From an uncultured Pseudomonadota bacterium (GTDB lineage Bacteria; Babelota; Babeliae; Babelales; RVW-14), in NCBI GenBank assembly GCA_964568625.1, contig CAZMQG010000001.1:83393-147392 (forward strand): a stretch of DNA of 64,000 nt, written 5' to 3'. This document shows positions 37,525 to 55,467 of the stretch, in pieces; position 1 is the stretch's first letter, and every line of letters starts with the position of its first letter. The notes under the pieces were generated by a model. It was not told the DNA's origin and searched no databases. It saw only the letters and a program-made list of their open reading frames with translations. Position numbers and translations under genes: made by a program.

Positions 37525-40173
37525 ATGGCAAAACTTAACAATTTTAAAGTATTTAAACACATATTACCCAACGGCCTTACAATTTTAGTCAAACCACAGT
37601 ATACCATACCTAGAGTAGAATCACACCTCTGGTACAATGTCGGCTCAAAAGATGAAGGGCAGGGAGAACAGGGCATCACCCATCTGATCGAACATATGCT
37701 ATTTAAGGGCACTAAAAACCTTTCTGAGTCAGATATAAATTTGATCACACATAAGCTGTCAGGCAACTCAAACGCCTTCACTTCACACGATGCTACCTGC
37801 TATACATTCCGATTTCCCAGCAACGTGTGGCAAGAGTCATTAGCCCTTTTTGCAGAATGCATGCAAAATGCCAGATTCGACCCAGAAACTCTTGCATCGG
37901 AGCTCAAGGCTGTCATTGAAGAATTCAGGCTATACCAAGACGATTATCAGGGATTGGTTGTTGAAAAAATTATTGAATCACTTTGGCCACAGCACCCATA
38001 TAGAACACCGGTTCTTGGCTTAAAACAAGACATATGCAATATCGGTCAAAAAAAGCTTCTTGAGTATTACAAAAAACACTATCATCCTGCCAATGCAACA
38101 TTAGTCGTAGTTGGAGATGTTCAACCTAACGAAGTCTTCAAATTAGCAGAAACATATTTTGGTAAAATACCTGGAAATCCTAATTACAAAAAACATGATT
38201 TTTTATTTGAGCCAGATATTCAACGTAAAACCGTTCAACTATTCAGGGATATTCAGGTTCCTTGGTGTTGTTACTTTTTTGAAATTCCGGGACTACGTGA
38301 TGGCCAAAACTATATTTTTGACGCCGCATCACTTCTACTTGGAGGAGGGAAAAGCTCCAGATTACACAAAAAACTGGTTGAACAAACAGAAATAGCAGTA
38401 GAAGTTGCCTGCTCAATTTATGAATTCTTTGATCGTGGACTTTTTGCAATAACGGTATATCCAAAAAGCATGGATAATATCGCTGAAATAGAACAAATCA
38501 TAAATCTTGAAATTCTAGAATTACAAAAAAAATCAATTGCAGATTGGGAAATGGAATCAGTCAAGAAACGCGCCCAAGTTGATTTTACCACCTTACTTGA
38601 AGACACTGAGAAACAGGCCGCCATGATCGGCAACCTTTATCTTGCAACAAAAGATGAATCCGCTTTTGAAAAATATATGGGAAATATTGAAAAGCTAGAC
38701 AAAAAACAAATTCAAAACTTTTTCATAGAATATTTCAGTCCTGCAACACTACATGCAGGATATTTATATCCAATACTTGAATTAGACAAACCAAAGTTCC
38801 ATAAAATACAAACAGAAGCAGATAATCAAGAGGCAAAACTTCTACAAAAGCTCACTCGCTCGACACCACTTGAAAATGGAAAATGGATCAACAAAATAGG
38901 TGATGCTAAACTACAAAAATTTAGTTATCCAAAACTAAAAAGCTTTACCATGGACAATGGCCTGGTTATAACTTTTTATAACAATCCAACAATTCCAAGC
39001 ATTAGCGCAATTTTAAATTTTAAAGCAAGCAGTTTATACGATGAAAACGATGTTGAAGGCTGTTTTATTTTTTTAATAAGACTCATGCTGGAAAGAACAA
39101 AAAAATATGATGCAAAAAAATTGGCCCAGTTACTCGAAACAAATGGAATCTACATTGGAAATCTTAACGATGTAATCACATTCAAATGTTTGAACCAAAA
39201 TTTTGAACAGGCGCTTGATATTTTATATCAAATTCTAACGCAGCCATCATTTGATACTCAAACAATTTCAAAAATAAAACATCAAGTGATTAGCGAACTA
39301 AAAGAATTTTGGGATACTCCTATTGAATTTATTGAACAGATAACTCGTGAGCATATTTATCAAAAACATCCATACAGTAAAAATCCTGTAGGAACCCTGA
39401 AAAGCGTTTCTAATTTAACAGCATCCGACTTAAAAAAATGCTTTAAGAAGTATATCTCTCCCGTAAACACAAATTTAATAATAGTGGGCGATTTAAACAA
39501 TATTGATCTGGAAAAAACCGTAAAAAAATATCTTGGATCATGGCATGGACCGGAAATACCAGAGTTAGAATTTCCAGCAATTATCTTACCAAAGGATAAT
39601 GAAAAGCACATAAATTCAAACCGAGACCAAACCGTAATTACAATTGCAGCTCCATCCGTATCCAGAAAATCACCTGAATATAATCATCTTGCAATTTTGG
39701 ATGTAATATTAACCGGCGGGCCTGGATTCTCTTCCAACTCAAGACTGTTTGATTTACGCGAAAAATACGGGCTATTTTACGCTATAGGCGGTTCATTAGT
39801 GTATGGCGCAAAAGAAGAACCAGGATTAATGCTCATAAAAACATTGGTAAGTCATGACAAGGTAGAAAAAGCAAAAAAATTAATACTTGCATCAATTAAT
39901 GATTTAGGGCAGAATGGAATTATTCAGGATGAATTTGAAATGGCCAAAAACATGATTCTATCGAGCTTAGTTGAAAATTTTGAGAGTAATATGCAAACGG
40001 CCAGCGCCTTTCTTTTTTTGAAAAAATTTAAATTAGATATAAATTTATTTGACAAAATGGGGGATACTTTCTCTATAATAAAGATAGATGAAGTAAATAA
40101 AGTTGCTAAAAAGTTTTGTCGAAGTAGTTGTTTTTCTTTTATTACGGTTGGTAGGGCTAGACCGAATCGATAG
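37525..40173 (+). CDS. M16 (pitrilysin) zinc peptidase with fused halves
   Basis: WYNVGSKDE, HLIEHMLFKGT (HxxEH), NAFTS, YHPANATLVVVGD; second half carries SRLFDLREKYGLFY. Confidence 0.9.
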   Translation: MAKLNNFKVFKHILPNGLTILVKPQYTIPRVESHLWYNVGSKDEGQGEQGITHLIEHMLFKGTKNLSESDINLITHKLSGNSNAFTSHDATCYTFRFPSNVWQESLALFAECMQNARFDPETLASELKAVIEEFRLYQDDYQGLVVEKIIESLWPQHPYRTPVLGLKQDICNIGQKKLLEYYKKHYHPANATLVVVGDVQPNEVFKLAETYFGKIPGNPNYKKHDFLFEPDIQRKTVQLFRDIQVPWCCYFFEIPGLRDGQNYIFDAASLLLGGGKSSRLHKKLVEQTEIAVEVACSIYEFFDRGLFAITVYPKSMDNIAEIEQIINLEILELQKKSIADWEMESVKKRAQVDFTTLLEDTEKQAAMIGNLYLATKDESAFEKYMGNIEKLDKKQIQNFFIEYFSPATLHAGYLYPILELDKPKFHKIQTEADNQEAKLLQKLTRSTPLENGKWINKIGDAKLQKFSYPKLKSFTMDNGLVITFYNNPTIPSISAILNFKASSLYDENDVEGCFIFLIRLMLERTKKYDAKKLAQLLETNGIYIGNLNDVITFKCLNQNFEQALDILYQILTQPSFDTQTISKIKHQVISELKEFWDTPIEFIEQITREHIYQKHPYSKNPVGTLKSVSNLTASDLKKCFKKYISPVNTNLIIVGDLNNIDLEKTVKKYLGSWHGPEIPELEFPAIILPKDNEKHINSNRDQTVITIAAPSVSRKSPEYNHLAILDVILTGGPGFSSNSRLFDLREKYGLFYAIGGSLVYGAKEEPGLMLIKTLVSHDKVEKAKKLILASINDLGQNGIIQDEFEMAKNMILSSLVENFESNMQTASAFLFLKKFKLDINLFDKMGDTFSIIKIDEVNKVAKKFCRSSCFSFITVGRARPNR

Positions 40174-40198
40174 CCCCAAAGGAAGTAAGGAGAATAGC

Positions 40199-40360
40199 AT
40201 GGCAGTCAAGAAAAAAGCAAAAAAGGCAGCTAAAAAAGTTGCTAAGAAGGCAACCAAAAAAGTTGCTAAGAAAAAGGTAGCTAAGAAGGCAGCTAAGAAA
40301 GTTGTCAAAAAAGTTGCTAAAAAGGCAGCTAAAAAAGTCAGCATGAAACTTGTCAAGTAA
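40199..40360 (+). CDS. Histone H1-like Lys/Ala-rich small protein (53 aa)
   Basis: AAGGAG RBS at 40187-92; 26 of 53 residues are Lys, none acidic; KK(A/V)(A/T/V) repeats; followed by a terminator. Confidence 0.8.
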   Translation: MAVKKKAKKAAKKVAKKATKKVAKKKVAKKAAKKVVKKVAKKAAKKVSMKLVK

Positions 40361-40500: not shown

Positions 40501-41004
40501 ATGACTTGTGCAAATAGTTTTTCTAAGACATTGATGATGGGTGCGGTATTTACGGTTATTGCATTACTTGGACTTGGAATTTGGTACGTCAAATTTGCAA
40601 GCAAAAATGAAATTCAACATACACTGGCAATCATTAAGCCTGATGCCGTAGCAGCCGGAAACAGTGGTAAAATCATTGATAAAATTGAACAAAGCGGATT
40701 CAAAATTATTGCAATGAAAAAAACTGAATTAACAAAAGAAAAAGCAGAAGAGTTCTATGCCGTTCACAAGGATAAACCATTCTTCGGCGAACTTGTAAGC
40801 TTTATGACTAGCGGCCCAATTGTTGTTCTTGTTCTTGAAAAAGAAAATGCAATTCAAGAATGGCGCAAGCTTATGGGTAAGGCAGAGATCGAAGGAACAT
40901 TACGCAACTTGTTCGGCACAAGTGTTACCAAGAATGCAGTTCACGGTTCTGACGCTCCTGAAACAGCAAAAGTCGAAATTAAACAGTTCTTTCCAGAACT
41001 TTAA
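40501..41004 (+). CDS. ndk: Nucleoside diphosphate kinase with an N-terminal hydrophobic anchor or signal
   Basis: TLAIIKPDAV, FYAVHKDKPFF, FMTSGP, GTLR, NAVHGSD (phospho-His). Confidence 0.92.
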   Translation: MTCANSFSKTLMMGAVFTVIALLGLGIWYVKFASKNEIQHTLAIIKPDAVAAGNSGKIIDKIEQSGFKIIAMKKTELTKEKAEEFYAVHKDKPFFGELVSFMTSGPIVVLVLEKENAIQEWRKLMGKAEIEGTLRNLFGTSVTKNAVHGSDAPETAKVEIKQFFPEL

Positions 41005-41024
41005 AATTTAGATTTTATAAATTC

Positions 41025-41070
41025 AAAAAGTAGAGGCGCAGGTTTTTCAACGTGCGCCTCTACTTTTTTT
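41025..41070 (+). terminator. Rho-independent terminator
   Basis: aaaaagtagaggcgca ... tgcgcctctacttttt, 16-bp stem ending in a T-run. Confidence 0.88.
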
Positions 41071-41172
41071 GGCCCATACACATAAATATATTGATTTTCT
41101 ATCCCTAATTTTTCTACGTTCTTATAAGTAATTTTTGATAATAAAAAAATTTATCTTTTAAGGGAGTAGATT

Positions 41173-44100
41173 ATGAATAAATTTCTGAGAATAATACTGT
41201 TATTTTGCATTGCATTCACGTTGGAATCAAATGCAATGCAGCCAAAATTAATCACACTCAAAACTAATCTCGGCACCTTAACAACAAAGCTGCAAATACT
41301 AGGACAAAAACTCGAAGCACTAAAAAACAAGCTCTCAGATAAAATTCAACCTGAATATCAAAAAAACCTAGATATTTACGCCCTGTACGGAGATAATCCA
41401 GGTATAATTAATGATTCTACAACAGGGCAACCAAGAGAATTAAAACTAGATAAGGACAAAAATTTAAGGCTTGTCGGGCTAGAAAATACTTCTTACACGG
41501 GCTATGGCTATAAAACAGCAAACCTCAGAGAACTGCAAAATATTATAAAAGAGATGAAAATCGCAAAGCCAACAACCTCAGAAGAACAACAATATATAAC
41601 TCAAACTAAAAAACTTAATTTCTTGAAATTACTTAAAAAACAAACTCTAAACATAGGTTATGCCGTTCCAGATTTTATAGGAATAAGCTCTGAAAACATA
41701 AAAAAATATCTCTTAAGTAAAAGCCTCAATATATCAAAACAGTGGAAGGATCTAACATCAACAATCCCTGCATCTGACCAAAAGGCATCTTTACAATCCA
41801 AAAATTTGCCTACCGCTTTTGTGACTGGAATTAATGGAATAGAAAAAGCAGTTAAGAATAAATTTCTTGGTGCAGCAGCTATTTCAATCGTAGATTTAGA
41901 TAAAGAGTTTAATACATCAGGCATAAAAACATTTTTAAGCACAGCGAAAGCTAAAAACCTCAAATTAATGGTTAGAAGTACAGGAAAAGAAGACACTGAC
42001 CAGTTGGCAAATGCAGGAGGTAATGAAACTATCGGCAATGTAGATCCAATCGACAAAAATATTTTAATGGCAATGGGACAAGGCCCAGAGGATCCCATTA
42101 ATAAAGGGGAGTTTAAACTAGGGGTCGTCTCATCATACTTTGGACTAAAATCATTTACACAAAGAATAAAAGCCGGCGATCTATCACTTTATGAAGAACC
42201 TCCAACCCCTGCTCTTATTCAAGTTATGATTGGTGAAACTCCTGATGAAATTACATCATGCGGCGTCATGTTTACTGAAGAGCCAGAAGGCGGAATTTCA
42301 CAAAAAAAAGAGATAAATTCCGACACCGGTCAGATTAAAACTACAGGCATTACACGTATTGAATGTTCTTATGGACATAACGAGGGTGTGGTTAACAGCA
42401 TGGTCCCAGTTGATGTTTACTACATCGATAATAAAAAGGAAATAAACTCCATAATTAGAATAAAAGATAAAAGAATAATTCCTACCCCAAAAGGATTTCA
42501 AATAACTACAAATGATAAACGCTTAGATGGAAGTTTAGCGGCAGATAAAGACTTACCTAATCAACCCGCGCTATCTAAAGAAGAAGTTAAGGCCCTCAAA
42601 ACTTTATCAAATTATCTTGAATTTCATTATAAAAAACCGATGGATGTTGAATTTGTTTTGAAAAAGGCTAATCCAACAGATAAAAAGCGCACCATTTATC
42701 TTGTTCAAGCTCGTCCAATTGTCCACAATGATAAAAAAATTACACCCAGCTATATTTTAAAACCGGAGGATTTTACTGAAAAAGTTACAGGAGAAGTTAT
42801 TGGCATCGCCGGAGGAGCGCTTAGACTCGTAAAAAGTAGAAACGAATGTGTTATCGCAGAAACACTTAAAGAAGCTCTTGAAATTTATCAAAAACTCGAC
42901 TCTTCAGATAATATTAATTGTATATTCGTGAAAAACATGGCTCCGGCAACTTCACATGAAGCAACGCAATTCAGAACGGAACAAAAAGCTGTAATGTGCG
43001 TACCTGAAGTTCAAATAATTGAAAAGTGGCTTCAAGAAAATAAATTTATTCTCATAGATATACAACAGGAACTTGTCACTGCTTGGGATGGAGATCCTAA
43101 TCTTGAAGAAGCACTAAAAAATGATACCCGACTGCACGATGGTTGGATTAACTACCCAATTCCAATGAAATTAACACTCGATGATCTTAAAGACAAAAAA
43201 TATAATAAAAAATTTTCTGCACTCAGCATAAGTGAAATAAACGCAAACTTTAAAGAATTCTTAAACTCTGATTATTTTAAAAATGTTGCAACCATGGCAC
43301 AAGATCAGGCAAAAAAAGATTTCATTAAGAAAAAAGGAGCTAAGCGAACAGTAAATTTAGCAATGTTTCGAATATGCTTCAATTCAATAAAAAAAGATGT
43401 TGAAGAATCAGCAAAATTAAATCTATGTAAGCTTTGCCTAGGCCTAAGTTCCCTTATAAATCAAATGCTAAAACAACTGAAGGATGATGATTTTACTTAT
43501 CAATCCAAACTTATATTGAATCATCTTTTAATACATGCTAAACAAGTAAGTTCTGTTTTGAAAATTCAACCATCTGACGCTAACTATTTCCAACGCTTAT
43601 ATGAAGTAAGATTTTTAGAATCCATTCTATTTCAAACTTCATCCAATGATATTTTTAATAATTATTCATTAGAAAATTTAACAACAAATATTTATGCAAA
43701 AGAGAAATCGATCGAAAAAGAGTTAAGAAAAACCGTACCAATGACGGTTGTAGGTGAAAAATTCAACCAACTAGTTCAATATGGAAAAGCTGCAGAATTT
43801 ATCCTAACCGATGATTTAAAGGCAAAATGGAATAAACTTCTAACTCAACTTCCCAATACTGATCTTAAAACTGATCAGAAAAAATTTAATGTAATGTTTG
43901 ATAATTTAGCAAAAAACAATCTTTTAACCGTTTGGTTTTTATTAAGCGTTGAACCGGTAATAAAAAATAAAAATATTACTTCAAAATTTGAAGCCCATAA
44001 TATAATTGATCAATTATATTCGGATTACAATACAAATAAGCCATTTATCGACGAATTAAAAAAACAAAGAGATAAATTTAATGAGTTAGAAATATCACTG

Positions 44101-47100
44101 TGGAGTAGCGCACATAAATTTGGCAAACAAAAAGAAAATTTAGAAAAAATTGGGGCATACTTTAAAAACCAAGCATTTTTCGACTCATACAACGCCTCAG
44201 GCAATCTGGGCAAAGTATTTGCAACTCAGGTAATGGAAGAATTTATTACTCTTTTTGACACATCAATAAAACAACTTGAAAGCAGCCTAAAAGAATATCC
44301 TGATGAACAAACTCTTATTACTAATATCAAAACTTTAATTACACTGTTTTTAAGTTTTTTATCTGAGTGGATTAATAAGTTTCCGGGAGCAATAAATATC
44401 GATGGGGCTAATGCTTGGGGAGGCCAAACATATACTCAACAAAAATACGACACCGCACAAGCAACTTTGTCCGGTATTTCACCAAATTCCACTAACTATA
44501 ATGACCAAATCAAAATATCTCCAACATTTGATGTAGGAGCATCTGCAATCGGAGGATCTAAAGAGACGGTTGCCAATCTTACAACATTAGAGGATATATT
44601 TACATTTACCCATCAAAGTTTATTGAACATATTAGGTTTTTTAAATAAAAGCATAGATATATTTGGAGCTTGCCCCCAAATAATTTCAAGACTAAATACA
44701 GAACTAACATCTGAAATAAAAACATTAACATCAACTGCTTATGTTGCGCCAAAAGACATAACATTAGCAGGATTATCGATTGAGGGTAAAAATTTAAAAC
44801 TAAAATATAACTATCCTCTCCGTGGACACAGTATGACTATCAATATTAACTTTGAAATAAAAACGAAAATAACAACTATTGCCTGCGAAATTGCCGGTAC
44901 TGGAGGTGGCGCAGGCGGAAATGAATTTGCAAGATTTTATAAAATAGGGGATTACATTGATGTTACAAGCAAAGCGTTAAATTTAAAATCAAATTATAGA
45001 TTCGAAATTCAGGATAAAAAAATAATATGGGAGTGGAAAATTGATTCTAAAACACCTGATATAAATATTTCAAAAATCAAAAATTTAATATTTGAAGCAG
45101 TTTGCATTTCATATGCCGTAAATAACTATCATAATGCAATGGCCTATGAAGCCAAGATATATCAAGAAACCTTTAATTTTATAGATAAAAACGCACTGAC
45201 AACACAGATCATAATTTTTTCAGAACAAAAGGAAAGATTGCACAGTGTTTTCGTAACAGCGCTTGAAAATCTTCCCCAAAATGCAACGTCCTGTAATAAC
45301 TGGGCAAAGACAATTGAAATTTTAGGAAAACTTATTAATGAAAATAATCCATATAGAATAAACACCGAATGTTTCTTTTTTAAAAAATACCACGATCCTT
45401 ACATGGGAGGGTTCCATCATCAATTAAATTATTTGAATATAGAAAATACATTATATCATGAATTAACCTCAAAAAATTATTTATCCATATCCAACACAGA
45501 GATTCAAAACATTGATTTAAAGAGAAATTACTTCAAATTCCGCGAGGCTAAAAAGATATTTAACTATCTGTGCCAAGTTTCACAATATTTTGACGAAAAT
45601 TGTTGGAATAAATTTTTAGATTTAATTAAATCTAACACTGAGCTAGTACTTGGCTTAGAAGACTTAACCCTTGATGATATGGAGGGAGATGGCCCCGCAG
45701 CGGCTAATTTAGAAAATACGGGCACTCAAGGCAGAACTCTAAAACTGCACAATTCCATATCAAAATTATTTAATAACGGATTTACAAGCAAGGTTGCAGG
45801 AGTTAAAGATAAGGCAAAAGCAACAGCAGAAACTTTAATATCAATGGGAATAACTGGTGGGCATCCAGAATGGACAACCGTAAAAGATCTAATTTTAAAT
45901 CAATATACACCCAAATTTGGAATATTTTCTTCTGCAGCGGTTCAGGCCACAATAATACAGTCAATTACAAAGACCCCAGAAGTATTTATTGCCCAAGCTA
46001 ATGCAGAAGATTCATTTAAATTAGTATATCCATCTAAAAAAGCTACATTAAAACCTTTTATAAGCTCATTAGGCGATTTTGCAATGAACCCGAATGATCA
46101 AATCTCCCAGGTAGCCTTCAAAATACTTACTTATTTAAAAGCCCAAGGAGAAGATATTTCAGCCTCATTTGCAAATATTTCGCAAAAAATAAAAACTGAC
46201 CAGGTCACGCTTTTACAACAACAAAAAATTACAAATTTAATAACTCTATTATATGATTTAGTTCCCAACCAAATGCAATTTTTGACAGAAGCAGAGGTAA
46301 TCGCAAAAAAGGCACTGAAATCATCAACTTTTACTACAAAAAATGAAGGAGTAAAATTAGCAAAATTCGTTTTATCCAAAAATCCAGCCGCCGCCTTTAA
46401 TCCTGCAGATTTAATCGATTTACAAGAAATAAAAAATTATATTGATCAATATACCTTCAATGATACGCCTGATAAAAAAGGGGAAAATGCTATCCAAAGC
46501 CTTAAATCAACCGGAACAGCAAATAAGGCAACTGTCCAAGATCCAATGCTTATAGATACAATAAAAAATCAAATCCAAAAGGGCTACTATTTCGGGAATA
46601 CCCAAAATCCAAATGTTTTAGATCTGTATGAATTGATTTCACAAAAAATCTATACTGACCATGAGTTAATCGAAACAGCAAAAACTGACTTAATGGGAAT
46701 ATTGAATAATACAAGCGTAGCCGATGGCGTTGTGCCAACTTATCCTGACCAACGTAATAAAATTGTAAATTTTGCAGAATATTTAATAAGAAATAACAAT
46801 GTAGATAAAAGTGACGTATGGGCCATTTTACAAGCTAGCGGAACAGACACAAAACGAAAATCATTAATTTGCATCCAGATTTTATTTAAAACTCATTACG
46901 ACACAAAAGAATTTTTCGATTTAAGCATTCCTTTAATATTTACCCAAATTAATGCCAATGACGGTGCAAGCAATTACAGTAAAATTGCAAATGATTGTTA
47001 TACGACACTTTACCAATCTATTATTCAAAATAAATATTCACACCAGGATAAGGCTCTATTAAAAACAACTCTTCAATCTTTGGCATTAACACCCGGATCA

Positions 47101-47142
47101 TACCCACAATCACAAAAAGAAGAGATTATTGGCTTATTATAA
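41173..47142 (+). CDS. Secreted 1989-aa PEP-synthase/PPDK-like dikinase (ATP-grasp plus phospho-His swivel) with a large unknown C-terminal region
   Basis: Signal peptide; LMVRSTGKED...AGGNET..NV, IQVMIG, GVMFT, SYGHNEGVVN, PMDVEF, IYLVQARP; swivel motif APATSHEATQFR (His595). No PEP-binding TIM-barrel signature. Confidence 0.8.
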   Translation: MNKFLRIILLFCIAFTLESNAMQPKLITLKTNLGTLTTKLQILGQKLEALKNKLSDKIQPEYQKNLDIYALYGDNPGIINDSTTGQPRELKLDKDKNLRLVGLENTSYTGYGYKTANLRELQNIIKEMKIAKPTTSEEQQYITQTKKLNFLKLLKKQTLNIGYAVPDFIGISSENIKKYLLSKSLNISKQWKDLTSTIPASDQKASLQSKNLPTAFVTGINGIEKAVKNKFLGAAAISIVDLDKEFNTSGIKTFLSTAKAKNLKLMVRSTGKEDTDQLANAGGNETIGNVDPIDKNILMAMGQGPEDPINKGEFKLGVVSSYFGLKSFTQRIKAGDLSLYEEPPTPALIQVMIGETPDEITSCGVMFTEEPEGGISQKKEINSDTGQIKTTGITRIECSYGHNEGVVNSMVPVDVYYIDNKKEINSIIRIKDKRIIPTPKGFQITTNDKRLDGSLAADKDLPNQPALSKEEVKALKTLSNYLEFHYKKPMDVEFVLKKANPTDKKRTIYLVQARPIVHNDKKITPSYILKPEDFTEKVTGEVIGIAGGALRLVKSRNECVIAETLKEALEIYQKLDSSDNINCIFVKNMAPATSHEATQFRTEQKAVMCVPEVQIIEKWLQENKFILIDIQQELVTAWDGDPNLEEALKNDTRLHDGWINYPIPMKLTLDDLKDKKYNKKFSALSISEINANFKEFLNSDYFKNVATMAQDQAKKDFIKKKGAKRTVNLAMFRICFNSIKKDVEESAKLNLCKLCLGLSSLINQMLKQLKDDDFTYQSKLILNHLLIHAKQVSSVLKIQPSDANYFQRLYEVRFLESILFQTSSNDIFNNYSLENLTTNIYAKEKSIEKELRKTVPMTVVGEKFNQLVQYGKAAEFILTDDLKAKWNKLLTQLPNTDLKTDQKKFNVMFDNLAKNNLLTVWFLLSVEPVIKNKNITSKFEAHNIIDQLYSDYNTNKPFIDELKKQRDKFNELEISLWSSAHKFGKQKENLEKIGAYFKNQAFFDSYNASGNLGKVFATQVMEEFITLFDTSIKQLESSLKEYPDEQTLITNIKTLITLFLSFLSEWINKFPGAINIDGANAWGGQTYTQQKYDTAQATLSGISPNSTNYNDQIKISPTFDVGASAIGGSKETVANLTTLEDIFTFTHQSLLNILGFLNKSIDIFGACPQIISRLNTELTSEIKTLTSTAYVAPKDITLAGLSIEGKNLKLKYNYPLRGHSMTININFEIKTKITTIACEIAGTGGGAGGNEFARFYKIGDYIDVTSKALNLKSNYRFEIQDKKIIWEWKIDSKTPDINISKIKNLIFEAVCISYAVNNYHNAMAYEAKIYQETFNFIDKNALTTQIIIFSEQKERLHSVFVTALENLPQNATSCNNWAKTIEILGKLINENNPYRINTECFFFKKYHDPYMGGFHHQLNYLNIENTLYHELTSKNYLSISNTEIQNIDLKRNYFKFREAKKIFNYLCQVSQYFDENCWNKFLDLIKSNTELVLGLEDLTLDDMEGDGPAAANLENTGTQGRTLKLHNSISKLFNNGFTSKVAGVKDKAKATAETLISMGITGGHPEWTTVKDLILNQYTPKFGIFSSAAVQATIIQSITKTPEVFIAQANAEDSFKLVYPSKKATLKPFISSLGDFAMNPNDQISQVAFKILTYLKAQGEDISASFANISQKIKTDQVTLLQQQKITNLITLLYDLVPNQMQFLTEAEVIAKKALKSSTFTTKNEGVKLAKFVLSKNPAAAFNPADLIDLQEIKNYIDQYTFNDTPDKKGENAIQSLKSTGTANKATVQDPMLIDTIKNQIQKGYYFGNTQNPNVLDLYELISQKIYTDHELIETAKTDLMGILNNTSVADGVVPTYPDQRNKIVNFAEYLIRNNNVDKSDVWAILQASGTDTKRKSLICIQILFKTHYDTKEFFDLSIPLIFTQINANDGASNYSKIANDCYTTLYQSIIQNKYSHQDKALLKTTLQSLALTPGSYPQSQKEEIIGLL

Positions 47143-47206
47143 AAGCCATTATTATTGTGTAGAATATGTCGATAAAATAGTATTTTTACCGTATTTTGAG
47201 TATTTT

Positions 47207-47235
47207 TTGCCAATATAAATTTCATTTCGTATAAT
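47207..47235 (+). promoter_or_regulatory. Sigma70 promoter for the single-domain phosphatase
   Basis: TTGCCA-17 nt-TATAAT. Confidence 0.6.
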
Positions 47236-47292
47236 TATATTGTCAAATAGTAGTATTTTTATACTTTTTTATCTAACTTGTTTGGAGGTTTT

Positions 47293-47847
47293 ATGAATAT
47301 TTTTAAAAACAGATCTTTTTTTTCTAAGTCATTTTTATTTTTTCCAGCAATTTTAATTACAGCAATCAGTTGTCACGCAATGCCTGAACAACCATTAAAT
47401 TTTGGCTGGCTTCTAGAAAACAAAATTTGCGGCATGGCAAGACCTAAAAAAACGGAACATTTAAGGTGGTTAGAAGAAAAGAACGTTGGACTTGTTGTTA
47501 CATTGACCGGCGAAGGCAATTTGCCTAATGCCATTTTTGATGGTACAAAACTAGAAAGACTTTATATTCCGGTCGAAGACTTTCACATTCCAACATTTGA
47601 GCAAGCGGATTTATTTATCAACAAAGTCACAGAATTTCTTAAAACAGGTAAATCAATCGTTGTCCATTGTGCCGGCGGCAAGGGAAGAACTGGAACAATG
47701 CTGGCGTGCTGGTTAGCTATAAAAGAAAATATGAATCCGGACGAAGCTATCAAATTTGTTCGTATAAAAAGACCTGGCTCAGTAGAAACCAAAGAGCAAG
47801 AACAATTTGTAAGAGATTATTTTGAATACTCAAAAAAGTCTAAGTAA
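47293..47847 (+). CDS. Secreted dual-specificity phosphatase (DUSP23-like)
   Basis: GGAGG RBS, signal peptide, NFGWL...GMARP, VEDFHIP general acid, HCAGGKGRTGTMLAC (Cx5R), RPGSVETKEQ. Confidence 0.88.
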   Translation: MNIFKNRSFFSKSFLFFPAILITAISCHAMPEQPLNFGWLLENKICGMARPKKTEHLRWLEEKNVGLVVTLTGEGNLPNAIFDGTKLERLYIPVEDFHIPTFEQADLFINKVTEFLKTGKSIVVHCAGGKGRTGTMLACWLAIKENMNPDEAIKFVRIKRPGSVETKEQEQFVRDYFEYSKKSK

Positions 47848-47885
47848 AAAATTTGTATGCTAAATAACCAGCAGACAAAATAAAT

Positions 47886-47923
47886 TCAAGCCACGAGTGT
47901 TAGATCTAACACTCGTGGCTTGA
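47886..47923. terminator. Perfect 38-bp palindrome between convergent genes
   Basis: tcaagccacgagtgttagatctaacactcgtggcttga equals its own reverse complement. Confidence 0.7.
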
Positions 47924-47932
47924 CCGTTTTAA

Positions 47933-50209
47933 CTATTTTGAATCATCTTTAAATTTCTTGATAGCGATTGCATCATAATTTTGACCAGATAAGCTATCAA
48001 TTTTTTGTAAAATATCTTGCGATATTTTATCACTGAATGACTTATTTTTAACAGCCATGGCAAGATGTCCTCTCAAATAAGCACTAAGCGTAGACTTTAG
48101 GCCCATACTAGAATTTATAAATATTTTTTCTACAGATTCAAGTACTAAATCTGTATCTTCTATTGGACCTAAGATTACACATACACCTTTAAATAAGTTA
48201 AACCCATCTATTATGCAAGATTTAACTGAAGCAGTCTTATTTTTTATAAAATCAACATCAATCCATTCAGGAAGATCACTACCACTAGTAAGACGCATAA
48301 CCATTCCAACCATTTTTCCTAAACACCCAACATGATCTAAATTAAATTGAACCATTGTCTCAAGCGTTGCCTTACTTGATAAAATGAATTTCAATATACC
48401 GTTAAAATGTTTTAAATTGTCTGAATCCTTTAATAAGAGATCTTTTGGGAACTTATATAAAAATGGTATCAGATTCAAATTCTTACGCTGAATACTATCA
48501 GCTACAAATCCATCAAAAATTAATTTTACAAAATCACAGTCCTTCTTATTTCCAGCGATTTTGTTATAAATTTCTCGCAAGATAGAAACTGATGTTTTTT
48601 CATCAAATTTAATTTCTTTTTCTACAAGTACAATTGGAACTTTCGATGCAATTTCAGCCTCCTTACTCAATTTTTCTTGAAGCTCTTTCTTCGCATCCGC
48701 CTCTTTTTTTAGTCTTTCAGCTTCTTCATGTACCTTCTTTAGAACTTCTGCTGCAGCTTCCTGGGCTTTTTGATCTTTATCTTTTTGCGCTTTTTCTGCA
48801 GCTTCTTGGGCCTCTCTTATCGTTCTAGCCTGTTCTTCTGCAATTCTTTTTTCTTCCTCTTCCTTAGCCTTTTTAGCTGCCTCAGCCACCTCTTCTTCTT
48901 TTGCTTTCGCATCAGCCATTCTCTTTGCCAACTCCTTGTCTATTGCTTTTATACAACGTAATGCATGAATTAAAGTCAAAAGCTGACGTTTGACAGTTCG
49001 CCCTTCAAAAGTAAAGCCTTTGACAGCATCTGTGTATCCAGGCGTTTGGGCCCCTACAACTTCAACTTTTGGACTTTTACCCGCATTTTCGAGCATGTAC
49101 AAATCGCAAGCTTCTGTAACCGCTTCAGTTTTTTCATCAAATCCATCCGCTATACTTGTTATTACTTTAATCAAATGGCTCAAACAAATAACCGCCAAAT
49201 TTTTGTATTTTCTTGCACCTGAATAATGCTGTCCTGAATACCAAAGAATTGCACCCGTAGCCCACTTCAAAAAAGATGGTTCACTGTACTTATTTGACAA
49301 AAGCGCATATGCCACAATCAAGCTTTGTGTACGCATAGTCAATAATGGCAACAAGCTTTTTAAAACTTCTGAATCTGTAACTTTGCCTTCAAGTATGGCC
49401 TCTGTTATATAATCGGCAGATGATTGTAAAAATTTTTTATTTTGCTCAACACCAACACCACTTACAATATTCCCGGCTTTAGCATTTACATACCCATCGT
49501 CAACCAAAGCCTTCATACTTGCAATAATTGCACCAGCGTTTGACGAATCAATTGCATTAACTTTCATACCCATTGCATACTGTTCAGCAACAGCAATTTC
49601 CCCTCCCCAAATTTTTTCATAAGGGCTATAAATATTTATAAGCGTTTGTTCATAATCTTTACAAATATATTTAATCTGAAATAGTTGCTCATCAGAAAAA
49701 CTACTTAATGATCCAAACAATTCCGCAAAATATTCTTTCTGTTTGGTAATAAGTTGTGCGTCTTTAGAAAATTCAGATAAATTACCCTTTAAATCCTGTT
49801 TTAGAAATTCAGTTTCTAAATTAATCAAATCATCTACTGGACCATCTTCCTTTTGAGTCTCATTCAACAAATAAAGATTATCATAAAATGCGTTTACAGC
49901 TCCTTGAAGCGTTGCTCGATCAATTACCCCTTGAACTAATCCATCTGGATTAATCCCACCACCAAGCTTACCTTCGCCCAATTGGAATTCTGCGCCTAAA
50001 GTTGGAGCACCGGTAATATCTTTATCTTCAAGTCTATCCTTAAGTAACCCAAGCTTTGTAACCAAAAGTTCATTTTTGTTTTTTAATTCTTTTAATTTAA
50101 CTGACAATTCGGTAAGAGAACTTTTCAAATCACCAGCCATACCCCATAAGTTTGAGGAAAAAACAAAAAATATAATAAATAATATTCGACGAACAATACG
50201 CCTTTTCAT
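47933..50209 (-). CDS. Secreted hypothetical protein with N-terminal heptad tag and central Glu/Lys/Ala coiled coil
   Basis: GGAG RBS, signal peptide, SLTELSVKLKELKNKNELLVTKLGLLKDRL, KAKEEE...KEAE stretch; no catalytic motif recognised. Confidence 0.7.
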   Translation of the reverse strand: MKRRIVRRILFIIFFVFSSNLWGMAGDLKSSLTELSVKLKELKNKNELLVTKLGLLKDRLEDKDITGAPTLGAEFQLGEGKLGGGINPDGLVQGVIDRATLQGAVNAFYDNLYLLNETQKEDGPVDDLINLETEFLKQDLKGNLSEFSKDAQLITKQKEYFAELFGSLSSFSDEQLFQIKYICKDYEQTLINIYSPYEKIWGGEIAVAEQYAMGMKVNAIDSSNAGAIIASMKALVDDGYVNAKAGNIVSGVGVEQNKKFLQSSADYITEAILEGKVTDSEVLKSLLPLLTMRTQSLIVAYALLSNKYSEPSFLKWATGAILWYSGQHYSGARKYKNLAVICLSHLIKVITSIADGFDEKTEAVTEACDLYMLENAGKSPKVEVVGAQTPGYTDAVKGFTFEGRTVKRQLLTLIHALRCIKAIDKELAKRMADAKAKEEEVAEAAKKAKEEEEKRIAEEQARTIREAQEAAEKAQKDKDQKAQEAAAEVLKKVHEEAERLKKEADAKKELQEKLSKEAEIASKVPIVLVEKEIKFDEKTSVSILREIYNKIAGNKKDCDFVKLIFDGFVADSIQRKNLNLIPFLYKFPKDLLLKDSDNLKHFNGILKFILSSKATLETMVQFNLDHVGCLGKMVGMVMRLTSGSDLPEWIDVDFIKNKTASVKSCIIDGFNLFKGVCVILGPIEDTDLVLESVEKIFINSSMGLKSTLSAYLRGHLAMAVKNKSFSDKISQDILQKIDSLSGQNYDAIAIKKFKDDSK

Positions 50210-50270
50210 ACTAGTCTCCTAAAAATATTTATATCAACCCATCAATTAAATTTCTTTTTTGTTTTTAAAT

Positions 50271-51590
50271 TTATTTAATCAAGAGCTTAGTTTTGAGAAT
50301 TAACAACTTTTCCTGCAATATACTAAGCTTCCCTTGAAAAGAAACAAGCGATCCCTTTAAACTACTCAATTTCTCGCGCAGTCTATTTAGCTGTTGTTCC
50401 CGCTCAATCCCTTCATAAAATTCTCCAATTTCTTCAGCTTCTTCAATTTGTTTTTTTGATTTTCTCCCCTTTGATAACTGTTTTGCCTCTTTTAATTTTT
50501 TGGCCAGAATATCACCACTTGGAGCTTCGGCTAAATTCCCAGTTAGCTGCCTTATTTTTTTATCTACCTTTTTCAATTTTTTTAATTTTCTGTTAAGTAA
50601 AATATTATAATATCTCAAAACAAACTTTATTTGCTCATCTGTTTCTATCGACCCAGGCCTCTTTGCTCTAACAAGATTAATAGCATCGACAGCCTTCATA
50701 TTTTTATTTGCTAGCAACCAACATGCAAGAATTGTCCCCGTTCTCCCCTTCCCTCCCCAGCAATGCACAACCGTTGCTTTACCGTTGGATTTCAAAATTT
50801 TTTTAGATTTTTCTATAAATTTATCAACCTGATCTATTGTAGGCACACCAAAATCATGAATTGGAAGGAATAGCCGTTCGATATCAACACTTTTAAATAT
50901 TTCAGGATCAGGGCCTTCTCCTGGCTCAGTAAGCGTCACAACCAGTCCCACATTAAGATCATGTAACGCCTTGATTTGTTCATTAGTTTTTGGCATAGCC
51001 ATACCGGCAATTACCCCATCTACAACCCAAGAAAAATTATTTCTCTTTAAAATTAAATATCTATAATATTCTTTAACAAAAATTTCCTGATCAATAGACG
51101 CTATTGATCCCAGACTTTTATTACGTACCAATTTTATAGCTATATCTGGGCTCATATCTGTATTTGCCAACAACCAACATGCAAGCATTGTTCCCGTTCG
51201 CCCCTTGCCTAACCGACAATGAACAACTGTTGCTTTCCCAGTCTTATCCCAAACTTCTTTAGATTTTTCTATAAATTTATTAACCTGATCCACAGTCGGA
51301 ATTCTCCCATCAGGTATAGGGAAAATGAAACGTTCAATATCAACGTTCTTGAAGATTTCAGGAACAGGGCCTTCTTTTGGCTCAGTAAGGGTCACAACAA
51401 GACCAACATTAAGATCATGTAACGCCTTGATTTGTTCATTAGTTTTTGGCATAGCCATACCGGCAATTCCCCCATCTACAATCCAAAAAAATTTATTTTT
51501 CTTTAACGTATTCGGAATCGTTTTCGCACAATGCAAAGCTTGAAAAAATAAGACACTTGCAATAATTATTCTTTTAAATAAAATACGCAT
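50271..51590 (-). CDS. Secreted tandem dual-specificity phosphatase with C-terminal heptad tag
   Basis: GGAG RBS, signal peptide; two DSP domains (HCRLGKGRT, HCWGGKGRT) offset by 152 aa. Confidence 0.88.
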   Translation of the reverse strand: MRILFKRIIIASVLFFQALHCAKTIPNTLKKNKFFWIVDGGIAGMAMPKTNEQIKALHDLNVGLVVTLTEPKEGPVPEIFKNVDIERFIFPIPDGRIPTVDQVNKFIEKSKEVWDKTGKATVVHCRLGKGRTGTMLACWLLANTDMSPDIAIKLVRNKSLGSIASIDQEIFVKEYYRYLILKRNNFSWVVDGVIAGMAMPKTNEQIKALHDLNVGLVVTLTEPGEGPDPEIFKSVDIERLFLPIHDFGVPTIDQVDKFIEKSKKILKSNGKATVVHCWGGKGRTGTILACWLLANKNMKAVDAINLVRAKRPGSIETDEQIKFVLRYYNILLNRKLKKLKKVDKKIRQLTGNLAEAPSGDILAKKLKEAKQLSKGRKSKKQIEEAEEIGEFYEGIEREQQLNRLREKLSSLKGSLVSFQGKLSILQEKLLILKTKLLIK

Positions 51591-51668
51591 GGAAAAACAC
51601 TCCTACAATAACCATTTAATAACTTTTTAAGTTTTACACAAAATCTAATTAACTTTGCAATTAAATTG

Positions 51669-51695
51669 AAAAGGCGTAGGAAAAAATCCTACGCC
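51669..51695 (-). terminator. Terminator downstream of clpB
   Basis: Minus strand ggcgtagga-ttttt-tcctacgcc-tttt. Confidence 0.75.
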
Positions 51696-51731
51696 CAAAC
51701 CATTATTAAGTTATTTTTATATAAATAAATC

Positions 51732-54290
51732 TTAACTGATCACAATCTGATCTTTTTTTGCATCAATTGTAAAAAGCTTTTTGTCAGGGTTTTTAAGAAT
51801 TTGTATGGAAAGCGGACTCACAACATAATGTTGCACAGCTCGTTTGAGTGGTCGAGCTCCAAACTCCTTCTGATATCCAAGCTCACCCAAAAGCTTAATT
51901 GCATTGCTGGTAACATCAAGCTCTATGTTTTTCTCCTTCAACCGATCGTTTAGATGATCAAGCTGAATGCGTACAATCTGTTCGATATCTTTTTGATTCA
52001 AAGATTTAAAGAACACGACTTCGTCAATTCTATTAAGAATCTCCGGACGGAAATATTTAAGAAGTAAGCCATCAATCTCTTTACGAACTTTTTCTGTAAT
52101 ATCACCTGCAGCTAAAATCAAATCTGAACCGATATTTGAAGTCATAATAATTATGCAATTTTTAAATGATACAGTGCGACCTTGCGAATCGGTCAGATGC
52201 CCCTCATCAAGAATCTGTAAAAAAATATTAAACACATCAGGATGGGCTTTTTCAATCTCATCAAAAAGCACCACGCTGTAAGGATTTTTGCGCACTGCTT
52301 CCGTTAATTGGCCACCCTCTTCGTAACCAACATAACCCGGAGGAGCTCCAATCAGACGAGCAACTGCATGCTTTTCCATATACTCGGACATATCAATGCG
52401 AATCATCTTACGTTCGTCATTAAAAAGATAATCTGCCAAAGTTTTGGCAACTTCTGTTTTGCCAACACCGGTTGGCCCAAGAAACAGAAATGAGCCGATT
52501 GGTTTGTTTGGATCAGCAATTCCCGACCTGTGAATTCGAATGGTATCAGAAATTTTAGTAATCGCCTCATCCTGGCCTATAACTCGTTTGTGTAACTCAC
52601 TTTCCATCTCGATGAGCTTTTGGCTTTCATCGGATTTGAGTTTTTCAACAGGAACATGCAACCAGCGAGATAACACAAGAGCAATGTCATCCTCATCAAC
52701 TTCTTCTTTGATCAGATGAGTTTTGAGTTTTTTAAGTTTATCCTGTTCCTGTGCTAATTTTTTCTCAAGTTCGACAATTTTACCGTATTTAATCTTTGAG
52801 GCTTTTGCAAAATCACCCTCACGTTCAGCCTGTGAAAATTCAACTTTTGCAGCGTCAATCTGCTCTTTTATTTTTTGCATAACCTCAAGAGGCTTACGTT
52901 CGGACTGCCACTGTTCTGTTTTTATTTTATATGACTCTTTAAGGTCTGAAAGCTCTTTTTCTAACTCATTCAGTCGAGTTTTTGAATTTTCATCTTTCTC
53001 TTTGCTAAGTGCAACTTTTTCAATCTCAAGCTGCGTTATACGACGAGAGAGCTGATCAATATCCTCAGGTTTTGAATCTATTGCCATTTTCACCATTGAG
53101 GCGGCTTCGTCAATTAAATCAATTGCTTTATCAGGTAAAAAACGATCTGGAATCATACGTGATGAAAGTTGTACAGCTTTAACAAGCGCTGAGTCTTTGA
53201 TTCTAATTCCGTGATGCAGTTCATAACGCTCTTTCAGTCCACGTAAAATTGAAATCGCATCTTGCTCTGTTGGCTCTTCAATTAAAACTTTTTGGAATCT
53301 ACGCTCAAGCGCTGCATCTTTTTCAATATATTTTTTGTACTCAGCAATTGTTGTTGCGCCAACACAATGCAACATACCGCGCGCAAGTGCAGGTTTTAAT
53401 AAATTTGAGGCATCCATTCCACCATTGGTTGCACCAGCACCAACAAGCATGTGTAATTCATCAATAAAAAGAATAATTCCCTCCGGCTCTTTTTCAATCG
53501 CCTGCAAAATGGCTTTCAAGCGTTCCTCAAATTCACCCCGATACTTTGTTCCTGCTATCAGGGATCCAAGATCAAGTGCCAAAATTTTGCGATTTTTAAG
53601 ACTCTCCGGAACGTCATTATCAATAATACGTTGCGCTATACCTTCAACAATGGCAGTTTTCCCAACACCGGGATCCCCGACAAGTACAGGATTATTTTTT
53701 GTACGTCGTGATAAAATTTGAACAACTCGCCTGATTTCATCATTTCTGCCAATAACAGGATCAAGCTTCCCATCACGAGCAAGCTTAGTAAGATCTTTGC
53801 AGTATTTTTCAAGAACCTGATAACCACTCTCCGCATTTTGATTTTTCACCGTATCCCCTCCCCGCATATTTTTAATCCATTCTAAAACCTTCTGTCCCGT
53901 AAAACCATTCTGTTTAAAATACTGTTGGATTTGACTAGGTAAAGTTGATGTTTTTGCAAATGCCAACATGCAAACATCAAGACTGATAAATTCATCCCCA
54001 AATGTTTTTGCCTCTTTTTCGCATTCACTTAAAAATTTCTGAAAAGAACTATCAACAGATATCTGACCGCCGGAAACTTTTGGCAAGCGAGACGATTCCT
54101 GCTCTACAATATTCTTTAAATTATCTATATCAAGCCCGCAGGCACGAAATCCCGATGCACAAAAATCGTTGTTTAAAGAAGAATACAAAAGATGAATTGG
54201 AGAAAATGTTGAATACTGTTCCTGAGTTGCTAACGTATAAGCTTCTTGTAATAGCTCTGTAAATGCGTTTGTAAATTTTTCTGAATTCAT
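51732..54290 (-). CDS. clpB: Chaperone ClpB
   Basis: Two AAA+ modules ([14 protein letters not shown]; [14 protein letters not shown]), coiled-coil M domain, FGARPLKR; AGGAG RBS before MNSEKF. Confidence 0.95.
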
Positions 54291-54327
54291 GCAAAAACTC
54301 CTAAAATTTATCTTAAATAGAAATGAA

Positions 54328-55467
54328 TTAAGCCAGTTCTGAGAATTGCTCACGTGGTATTGGAACGTAACTTAAATGCAAAGATCTTCCCCATGCCATT
54401 AAGAAACTGCGCAATCTGTACGCCTTTGGAGTCGTAGAATTTCTAGGAAATGCCGGATCTATACATAAAACACACTGCTTCTCTTTATTCCATCCTACAA
54501 CCACCATCAGGTGCCCATTAGTGTATGATGTAGCGCCTCCACGTAATTTGCGAACACTAACGGCTACAGGAATTTTTTTAGAAAGATATTTGTAGAGATC
54601 ATCAAAAAAGTTCAGCCTCTCAACTCGAAAGAAAACATTTCCATAAGTTGCATCATGAGCAGCTGCAACATTAAGCGGCCAGTTTCCATAAATATTTAAG
54701 TACCCGTTGTCATAAACTTTATCTGCAAAATCAACCATATAACTATTCAAATCATGCGAACAGTCACCATAAAGTTTTTTATTAAAATAATTTACAATAA
54801 TTCCGGTAGAGGTTGGTGAACACAAGTCACGATAACGTGGATGATTCAGTACCATTTGAGACTGTCTTGGTACACCGCTCACAATAACAGAAGGAAGGTT
54901 CGAAACGTAGGAATCACCCTTAAATTTTTTAACATTCGATAAACATGCAAACAAGGCTTTTAGATTTTTGGGATTTGCACCCTTTTGAAACACAACCTTA
55001 ACCTTAAATGCCGTACCCAGCTGCCCCTTTTTCAACTCCACTTTAGAGTGTGTTGTATGCACATAACGATTAAGCTTATTAACAAAAGTTCGCTGAGATG
55101 TAGCTCCCCACTCAGCAAGACGTTGCCATCCTGCCCAAGATGAGTGCTTTACATTAACCCAAAAAGTCATTTTCCCTTTTTCAGGACGCATCGCATTCCA
55201 CGACAAAATGAGCTCGGTAAATGGAAAGTTTGGCTCACATTCCCAAATAAAAAACTCTTGATCTGATTCAATCTCACCTTCAAAAATATACCTTGATACT
55301 GTTTTTGAAAATTTTTCGCTACTAAAAGATTGAGTCGAATCTAAATCCCTGTGTCGTTTTCTTCTTCCTGAACTTACTGCATTTACATTCAGAAAATTAA
55401 ACGTAACACACGCTATTAAAAATAAAAAAAAACGCTTTTTAAATCCAATAAAAACCTTCATTAACAT
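54328..55467 (-). CDS. Secreted peptidase C39-like family protein
   Basis: Signal peptide; RSQMV...LCSPTST (Cys), GHLMVVVG (His), IDPA (Asp). Confidence 0.75.

Follow-up and report, generated by a model that had tools for sequence, protein, structure and literature searches.

A bounded, lysine-flanked leucine heptad module at the termini of secreted effector-like proteins in Dependentiae

The window analysed here is a stretch of 64,000 nucleotides from an uncultured bacterium (contig CAZMQG010000001.1 of assembly GCA_964568625.1), in which three unrelated secreted proteins each carry a Leu- and Lys-rich heptad segment close to one terminus. All three belong to a bounded module of about 36–40 residues, not described before and found here in the Dependentiae (TM6/Babeliales), a widespread and almost uncultured phylum of protist parasites in which signal-peptide proteins account for a large share of the genes (PMC4378268, PMC6561590). 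The M16 peptidase and NDK of the window fall into clusters of at least 90% identity with proteins of 'candidate division TM6 bacterium GW2011_GWF2_36_6' and 'Candidatus Babeliales bacterium'. Sequence comparisons place what appears to be the same module on dozens of effector-like, mostly eukaryote-like enzymes in related genomes. It is not mentioned in the papers on TM6 and Chromulinavorax cited here (PMC4378268, PMC4776705, PMC6561590), and we found no publication describing it. As a terminal tag it allows a class of candidate effectors to be listed directly from metagenomes, and as a peptide of 38 residues it is a synthesizable handle for finding a receptor.

The first copy (41236–41346, plus strand; MQPKLITLKTNLGTLTTKLQILGQKLEALKNKLSDK) lies in a giant secreted protein of 1989 residues with a PPDK_N (ATP-grasp) domain (41173–47142, plus strand). 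Its 30-residue segment (41245–41334) starts 4 residues past the predicted Sec signal peptide MNKFLRIILLFCIAFTLESNA (41173–41235), an arrangement that we term N-type. The second copy (50274–50390, minus strand; LNRLREKLSSLKGSLVSFQGKLSILQEKLLILKTKLLIK, followed by the stop codon) is of the corresponding C-type, its segment (50283–50372) ending 3 residues ahead of the stop of a 439-residue secreted tandem dual-specificity phosphatase (DSP; 50271–51590, minus strand; predicted signal peptide MRILFKRIIIASVLFFQALHCA, 51525–51590) with two intact HCxxGxxR sites. The third copy (50021–50131, minus strand; DLKSSLTELSVKLKELKNKNELLVTKLGLLKDRLEDK) is again N-type, with its segment (50030–50119) starting 8 residues past the signal-peptide-like N-terminus (MKRRIVRRILFIIFFVFSSNLWG, 50141–50209, minus strand) of a 758-residue secreted protein (47933–50209, minus strand) that has a central E/K/A-rich helical stretch. 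Signal peptides were called by reading the sequence and are hence predictions throughout. The preliminary description of this DNA had reported the three segments and their placement, and the translations match its peptides exactly; it was silent on the strand, and the second and third copies are encoded on the minus strand, the plus strand there being stop-rich. Its remark that a single-domain DSP of 189 residues in the same locus (47278–47847, plus strand; Pfam PTP-SAK/DSPc), which also has a signal peptide, is free of the segment holds as well, since this protein gives no match to the hidden Markov models (HMMs) of the module and serves as an internal negative control.

The first two copies are, as had been described, identical at 15 of 30 positions, with every identity an L, K or I at a heptad position. 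For these two, which we assign to subtype A, the claim that one tag is shared stands; the third copy, with Asn at one core a position, represents a divergent subtype, B, rather than a close copy. The DNA identity between the window copies is 34–49% and their codons differ; therefore the likeness has been kept at the protein level and does not reflect recent duplication. An independent HMM, made from 44 instances of other genomes with the window copies and their close orthologues left out, scored copy 1 at 34.7 bits and copy 2 at 28.1 bits, against 5.2 bits for the next open reading frame (ORF) of the window and peaks of 3–10.6 bits in 20 residue shuffles of the six-frame set. With the subtype-A HMM, copy 3 reached no more than 9.1 bits, compared with 62.4 bits for the HMM of subtype B, among whose seeds it stands. 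The other coiled coils of the window, namely the ClpB M-domain and the E/K-rich centre of the 758-residue protein, gave no score. A single-sequence AlphaFold2 model of the tandem DSP has residues 386–438 as one continuous helix, with a predicted local distance difference test score (pLDDT) of 64–75 by block, the mean for the whole model being 53. Directly before the basic module of this protein lies an acidic stretch (50391–50450, residues ~381–400) with a conserved GEFY.GIE.EQ motif, which is also present in the orthologue from the related locus L002 (L002 17402–18316); it could fold back onto the basic helix as an intramolecular acid-base pair.

The general form of the module was derived from 17 curated instances and then from 56–60 non-redundant ones, with the column profile calculated from 56. 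It consists of five heptads in which, among the 17 instances, Leu occupies 80% of both the a and the d positions and Lys 61% of e and 55% of g; each of the ten a/d columns has Leu in 46–56 of the 56 instances. The outer face is made of Gly/Ser/Thr at b and Thr/Asp/Glu/Asn/Gly at f. The heptads are unequal: the g position of heptad 2 is Ser/Asn rather than Lys in 43 of 56 instances, that of heptads 3 and 4 is Lys in 49 and 42, and e of heptad 4 varies. A break with Pro/Gly comes after the last Leu. Because the columns are position-specific in this manner, the module is to be seen as a discrete domain and not as a repeat. It is rich in Leu (26.5%), Lys (18.7%) and Gly (8.1%), with 1.3% Arg and a mean net charge of +4; Ile accounts for 1.9% of residues, against 9.1% in the window proteins, and Ile, Val and Ala are nearly absent. 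The a/d spacing is exactly 3.5 residues across the five heptads, and the hydrophobic moment is 0.389 at 3.5 residues per turn against 0.346 at 100 degrees. Hydrophobic a and d positions thus extend over at least four heptads, as in a coiled coil, and the Leu core is flanked by Lys at both e and g, as in the basic partner of an acid-base pair.

Subtype B is described by the signature [AD]LK.SL..L..SL.ELK.K[NT]ELL..KL.LLKD[RK]L, or in short form KNK[NT]ELL..KL.LLKD[RK]L. Seven members, at either terminus of their proteins, were aligned (the window copy, one each in L002, P0140, L004 and L128, and two in L126), and L116 has a further B-like copy; a polar core residue (Asn/Thr) occurs in this subtype only. 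For the module as a whole we propose the signature L-K-x-[SN]-L-x-x-L-K-x-K-L-x-x-L-x-x-K-L-x-x-L-K-x-[KR]-L, in a terminal position of a signal-peptide protein, as the Dependentiae terminal K-zipper. Copies 1 and 2 of the window conform to it, and copy 3 agrees in position and heptad pattern, as subtype B only. The connectors between module and cargo are short (about 5–20 residues), contrary to the long flexible linker that had been expected.

An exhaustive HMMER search with a profile of 14 sequences and 45 columns, including three flanking columns from signal-peptide ends, was run against 1.84 billion representative proteins (E<=1e-3). Its 88 matches include 10 from the query family, about 20 perfect tandem low-complexity repeats and 49 clean, new single-copy instances. 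In 45 of these 49 the module is terminal, compared with a mean of 15.3 and a maximum of 26 in 10,000 trials of random placement. Thirty-seven are N-type: the module occupies residues about 20–65, and 32 of these proteins open with a hydrophobic stretch like that of a signal peptide. In eight others it lies no more than 12 residues from the C-terminus, and the last four are internal, one of them due to a mis-called start. Typically, the N-type module begins 2–8 residues past the signal peptide, and the C-type is usually about 5 residues or less away from the C-terminus. Hardly any long cytoplasmic coiled-coil proteins are among the 88 matches, so that the concern, raised at the outset, of an HMM hitting generic cytoplasmic coiled coils equally often is not borne out. 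Across 15 Dependentiae loci, 30 instances divide into 16 N-terminal and 14 C-terminal ones, with none internal, and C-type carriers with complete N-termini also possess a signal peptide. In three Dependentiae loci picked independently (TGT neighbourhoods, 63 kb) there were no matches, and the three ankyrin proteins and one leucine-rich repeat (LRR) protein encoded there are without the module; hence it is not ubiquitous and appears concentrated in particular islands or lineages. A loose L/K heptad pattern at the DNA level (L..LK..L..L..KL..L..KL..L), used as a negative control, occurs on genome contigs at 118 or more loci in many phyla, but those listed are almost all tandem-repeat pseudo-ORFs, with a few extra Dependentiae loci (L033, L073, L085, L116); a word-seeded search with the motif profile, a method ill-suited to a 45-column low-complexity profile, gave one irrelevant match of 24 bits.

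The suggestion that the segment is a portable module on unrelated secreted proteins is strongly supported, as it occurs with at least ten unrelated domain families, is kept in orthologues and varies in presence within a single family. Carrier domains comprise PPDK_N, DSP, UCH/USP deubiquitinase (3), RING/U-box, IBR, ADP_ribosyl_GH, a cPLA2-like lipase (PLA2_B), LRR, WH2 and IQ. Pfam assignments among the 49 new matches account for UCH/USP (3), ADP-ribosylglycohydrolase, the cPLA2-type lipase, RING/U-box, LRR, WH2 and IQ, most of the 49 having no family. The PPDK_N family shows the variation most clearly: among 120 listed homologues of the 1989-residue protein, about two dozen have the module between signal peptide and catalytic domain, and in many others the signal peptide runs straight into a conserved GYGYKTANL motif. 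Conservation in orthologues, which had been named as a point on which the proposal could fail, is seen at overall identities of 53–60%. The syntenic locus L002 (M16-NDK-PPDK_N-DSP-705 aa-DSP-ClpB, complete) retains all three instances, and L001 also retains the module. Copy 1 is kept in L001, L002 and P0001; the orthologues of its carrier are P0001, P0002 and P0003 (98%, 58% and 56% identity). The 758-residue protein corresponds to one of 705 residues in L002 (53% identical), with P0140 as a further relative, and the tandem DSP to a protein of 287 residues with a single DSP domain that keeps the C-terminal module.

Module genes tend to be neighbours, two or three being adjacent or near one another in the window and in L001, L002, L004, L005, L006, L007 and L126. 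Thus, L001 has the module in two PPDK_N paralogues and at the C-terminus of a 603-residue protein; L004 has a RING/U-box protein (N-type), an IBR protein (N-type) and a 492-residue protein (C-type, subtype B) side by side; L005 has two USP paralogues (C-type) and a 517-residue protein (N-type); L006 has two adjacent N-type genes and a C-type gene a few genes off; L007 has two N-type genes and L126 two C-type. Two independent architectures join DSP to PPDK_N in one protein, SP-DSP-module-PPDK_N in P0038 and SP-module-PPDK_N...DSP in P0007, P0009 and P0012 (SP, signal peptide). A further subfamily (P0126, P0135, P0144, P0146, P0150 and P0163) has a lipobox-like LF[GASTD]C motif 3–6 residues ahead of the module, and its members are probable lipoproteins. 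Several such proteins share a conserved IDGKEYCTCE[FY]W domain.

No Pfam-A or NCBIfam family reached its cut-off on the module, the best matches scoring 12–18 bits against cut-offs of 24–200, and the sub-threshold matches were to generic coiled-coil families and the IcmG/DotF coil. Profile searches of the PDB retrieved designed coils only, namely sc-apCC3 (LAALKEK; 9rgy), the BASE strand of the GCN4 acid-base pair (1kd8_B), IAAL-K3 (1u0i_B), CC-TypeN-LaLd and Coil-Ser, together with basic zippers fused to receptor ectodomains. The designed basic zippers share with the module a Leu core (a and d), flanking Lys residues (e and g alike) and a length of 4–5 heptads, and the BASE-p1 peptide of the 'Peptide Velcro' design reportedly has a single core Asn, as does subtype B. 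They differ in being man-made, in their Ala-rich outer face and in needing a matching acidic coil, whereas the outer face of the module is rich in Gly, Ser and Thr and one of its g positions is Ser/Asn. The module would thus appear to be a natural counterpart of the basic half of the acid-base zipper, which is otherwise familiar chiefly from protein design. More generally, it appears to be a phylum-level variant of the leucine zipper, put to unusual use as a terminal tag on Sec-exported enzymes of eukaryotic type. A SNARE-like motif of the IncA/LegC kind has about 60 residues in 8 heptads, with 16 layers and a central polar zero layer; the module, with about five heptads and a polar core residue in subtype B only, does not fit this pattern.

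The preliminary description had suggested three mechanisms, a hetero-oligomerising zipper, a secretion or chaperone-binding signal and an amphipathic membrane helix, each of which may apply and is weighed below. We consider the chances about evenly balanced that the module acts as a basic leucine zipper that docks its cargo enzyme onto a partner after Sec export. Lys at e as well as g, by the rules that hold for designed E/K coils, predicts instability of the isolated peptide. Given this Lys pattern and the Gly/Ser/Thr-rich outer face, the module by itself would be a poor helix and, owing to Lys-Lys repulsion, a poor homo-oligomer, and would fold by zipping onto its partner once exported. The attached enzyme would thereby be docked, either on an acidic coiled-coil receptor that the carriers share or in bundles with module proteins encoded alongside, so that the module would set the location and company of an effector rather than whether it is exported. 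A docking role is favoured over that of an export signal because the module is optional, the single-domain DSP and most PPDK_N homologues being without it. Assembly of module with module finds indirect support in the adjacency of the genes and in the two independent fusions of DSP with PPDK_N; if the carriers do assemble through their tags, the window island would encode a complex of a kinase-like protein, a phosphatase and a scaffold.

Several points weigh against docking. Pairing of one module with another would be electrostatically unfavourable, since all of them carry Lys at e and g, and no acidic partner coil was detected by heptad scan or charge-mirrored HMM in 267 kb of Dependentiae DNA, a small and biased sample that does not extend to host proteomes. 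Leu stripes flanked by Lys can bind anionic membranes too. The helix in the tandem DSP comes from a model of low confidence (mean pLDDT 53), the three signal-peptide-end columns in the query may slightly favour matches that follow signal peptides, and taxonomy was checked for part of the matches.

Of the alternatives, membrane binding ranks first, though we hold it to be unlikely. It would have the Leu stripe inserted into a membrane or lipopolysaccharide and the flanking Lys residues snorkelling to anionic head groups, and would anchor effectors to a host membrane, to the outer membrane of the bacterium or to outer-membrane vesicles. Cargo at either end is compatible with a helix that lies on a surface; the net charge of +4, with Lys beside the hydrophobic stripe and small or acidic residues opposite, gives a class-A-like layout; the lipobox-like LF[GAS]C motif would place the helix of that subfamily at the membrane surface; and the early stages of Chromulinavorax infection reportedly feature outer-membrane vesicles (PMC6561590). 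Yet only 2 of 7 positions make up the narrow hydrophobic face, a 3.5-residue period maintained over 35 residues would carry the stripe through about 100 degrees if the helix is straight, and the position-specific polar residues and nearly exclusive use of Leu over Ile, Val and Phe point to specific packing. Taken together, these features favour the packing of a coiled coil over flat binding to a membrane. Long lipid-binding helices, moreover, normally have an 11-residue periodicity. That the segments have no common function, being ordinary coiled coils of independent origin or low-complexity products of an AT-rich genome, is most improbable and largely refuted. The identities between window copies are confined to L, K and I at a DNA identity of 34–49%, the loose heptad pattern is found in many phyla, and copy 3 barely exceeds the shuffle level with the subtype-A HMM, as this explanation would have it. 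It is opposed by the tandem-repeat nature of almost all loose-pattern loci elsewhere, by profile matches that are bounded, position-specific, terminal and linked to signal peptides, by retention in orthologues at 53–60% overall identity, and by the failure of other coiled coils in the window to score.

The remaining alternatives would make the module a targeting signal. As a second-step sorting signal, it would be read after Sec export by the type II secretion system (T2SS), a periplasmic chaperone or another translocator, and would mark proteins bound out of the periplasm or across the host membrane. Beyond the Sec pathway, the T2SS is the only export route and dedicated secretion system on record for TM6 genomes, Babela included (PMC4378268, PMC4776705), signal peptides are present on 44% of Chromulinavorax coding sequences, so that some sorting is needed (PMC6561590), and the tag is terminal, bounded and attached to enzymes with eukaryotic substrates. 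We nevertheless regard such a signal as rather improbable, since the tag is optional (it is missing from the adjoining single-domain DSP, from most PPDK_N homologues and from the three ankyrin proteins and one LRR protein of the control loci, signal peptide or not). Known T2SS substrates, furthermore, are recognized in the folded state and not through linear tags. The fact that cargo lies on either side of the same N-to-C profile disfavours mechanisms that act from a free end, be it threading or a presequence, and the latter bears on a host-directed element as well. This would be a basic helix resembling a mitochondrial presequence, or would act by mimicry, binding a host coiled-coil protein that is conserved. 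In its favour, the N-type module forms a basic mature N-terminus rich in L/K/S/T/G, Chromulinavorax remodels the host mitochondrion (PMC6561590), and Sec-secreted phytoplasma effectors bind host coiled-coil domains through coiled coils (PMC12633904). It is nonetheless very unlikely, for about half of the instances in the sampled loci (14 of 30) are C-terminal, which is incompatible with a presequence, and presequences are Arg-rich and without sequence conservation, whereas the module has a conserved column profile and is rich in Lys rather than Arg (18.7% against 1.3%).

Docking after export also admits a stronger version, which we offer tentatively as a rather unlikely extension: the module might serve as an address tag within a system, not described so far, for sorting or assembling effectors, which works through an acidic receptor or through A/B hetero-bundles and by which intracellular bacteria with the T2SS only build multi-enzyme effector complexes. 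Enzymes bearing the K-zipper would be captured by an acidic receptor dedicated to them, either in the host or on the bacterium, at its surface or on its secretion machinery; otherwise, helices of subtypes A and B would form hetero-bundles, for example of two A and one B, as encoded in the window, L002 and L004. Were this so, the effector repertoires of a whole uncultured phylum could be read from sequence, and the island would build multi-enzyme complexes of, for instance, ATP-grasp kinase, phosphatase and scaffold.

Several known systems resemble the module in part. Braun's lipoprotein Lpp likewise has a short coiled coil a few residues past a signal-peptide/lipobox cleavage site, an arrangement that the subfamily with the lipobox-like LF[GAS]C motif recalls, but it is a stand-alone alanine-zipper trimer linking outer membrane and peptidoglycan, whereas the module bears enzymes and also occurs at C-termini; the Lpp family is missing from the Pfam/NCBIfam matches to the module even at E<=10, and the window copies have no lipobox. 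SLH domains, dockerins, choline-binding repeats and LysM repeats are comparably portable, follow signal peptides or stand at C-termini, and are optional within enzyme families; their fold and length are entirely different from those of a single helix, and the bearers of the module are diderm intracellular parasites. RxLR-dEER and PEXEL are likewise short elements shared by unrelated effectors past the Sec signal peptide, and serve as tags for finding effectors, but they are short linear or protease-processed motifs restricted to the N-terminus, in contrast to a five-heptad helix that is as often C-terminal. The phytoplasma effectors SAP54/Phyl1 (PMC12633904) share Sec export from a genome-reduced, host-dependent bacterium and protein binding by a coiled coil; there, the whole effector is an antiparallel coiled-coil hairpin, unlike a single-helix appendage on enzymes.

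The three module genes of the window lie in a variable effector island (41005–51731) between conserved flanking genes for NDK (40501–41004) and ClpB (51732–54353). Relatives that are 88–94% identical in the PriA-DUF374-M16-NDK...ClpB backbone (L004, L126 and L127, and L128 for M16 and NDK) have no PPDK_N, DSP or 758-residue homologues within the DNA retrieved, and the NDK-ClpB interval of L004, L126 and L128 has different module-bearing genes next to NDK. L001 and L002 are more distant (M16 71–74% identical) yet keep the content of the window island. This pattern suggests that the hypervariable island reflects cassette exchange among Babeliales. A metagenome scan anchored on the M16 peptidase added 3 loci informative on the island. 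The peptidase itself was entertained as a processor of the basic helix and rejected, as it has no signal peptide and belongs to the conserved backbone.

PPDK_N (residues 161–522), the ATP-grasp domain that binds the nucleotide in PEP-utilizing enzymes, is the sole domain recognized in the 1989-residue protein, and PEP-utilizer domains were not found, so that the earlier term 'dikinase' is overstated. The secreted PPDK_N-only proteins form a large family (158 matches, 1,100–2,250 residues) whose members, lacking the phosphohistidine and PEP/pyruvate domains, cannot be counted as true dikinases; tandem paralogues are seen (3 in L003, 2 in L001), and some members carry a fused DSP, USP, ankyrin or HEAT domain. 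The 758-residue protein matches no Pfam or NCBIfam family. In the 1989-residue protein the signal peptide is read from a basic n-region, a hydrophobic core and SNA preceding Met22. Translation from the conserved Met that follows the signal peptide was rejected as the true start: Shine-Dalgarno sites precede the ATGs that include the signal peptide (AAGGGAG for the 1989-residue protein, TAGGAGA for the 758-residue protein), the Met following each of these two signal peptides is without a good site, and 32 of 37 N-type proteins have a hydrophobic N-terminus. Gene callers sometimes place the start at this Met (P0003, P0140, P0183, P0187). Signal peptides of the lineage often end in a small residue and Met (NAM, HAM, WGM, SGM, NCM), also in module-less proteins; in the window such ends are seen at 41233–41238 (A-M of ESNAMQP), 50138–50143 (G-M of LWGMAG) and 47368–47373 (A-M of CHAMPE), and a small residue followed by Met at residues 15–42 is present in 32 of 92 PPDK_N homologues with signal-peptide-like starts, against 14.5% of background windows.

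Directly 3' of NDK is a strong hairpin resembling an intrinsic terminator (41028–41072; gtagaggcgcag...gtgcgcctctac, then a T run), and therefore the 1989-residue gene probably opens its own transcription unit. NDK has an N-terminal extension of ~38 residues with a hydrophobic segment (MMGAVFTVIALLGLGIWYV) ahead of its domain, shared with its counterparts in L001 and L002 (171 and 212 residues), by virtue of which it may be membrane-anchored or exported. A small Lys/Ala-rich ORF between M16 and NDK (40199–40360; MAVKKKAKKAAKKVAKKATKKVAKKKVAKK...) resembles histone H1/Hc1-like nucleoid proteins and has no Pfam match; ORF 40045–40356 is its antisense mirror artefact. The public label 'uncultured Pseudomonadota bacterium' of another module-bearing metagenome-assembled genome, GCA_964607885.1 (L007, L085), looks wrong, its TGT being 70–74% identical to Babeliales/TM6-named proteins, and on that ground the wider taxonomic range that the label would imply was rejected. 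On the far side of the island, a Peptidase_C39_2-like protein (54328–55467), annotated through synteny with L002, adjoins ClpB and belongs to the conserved backbone.

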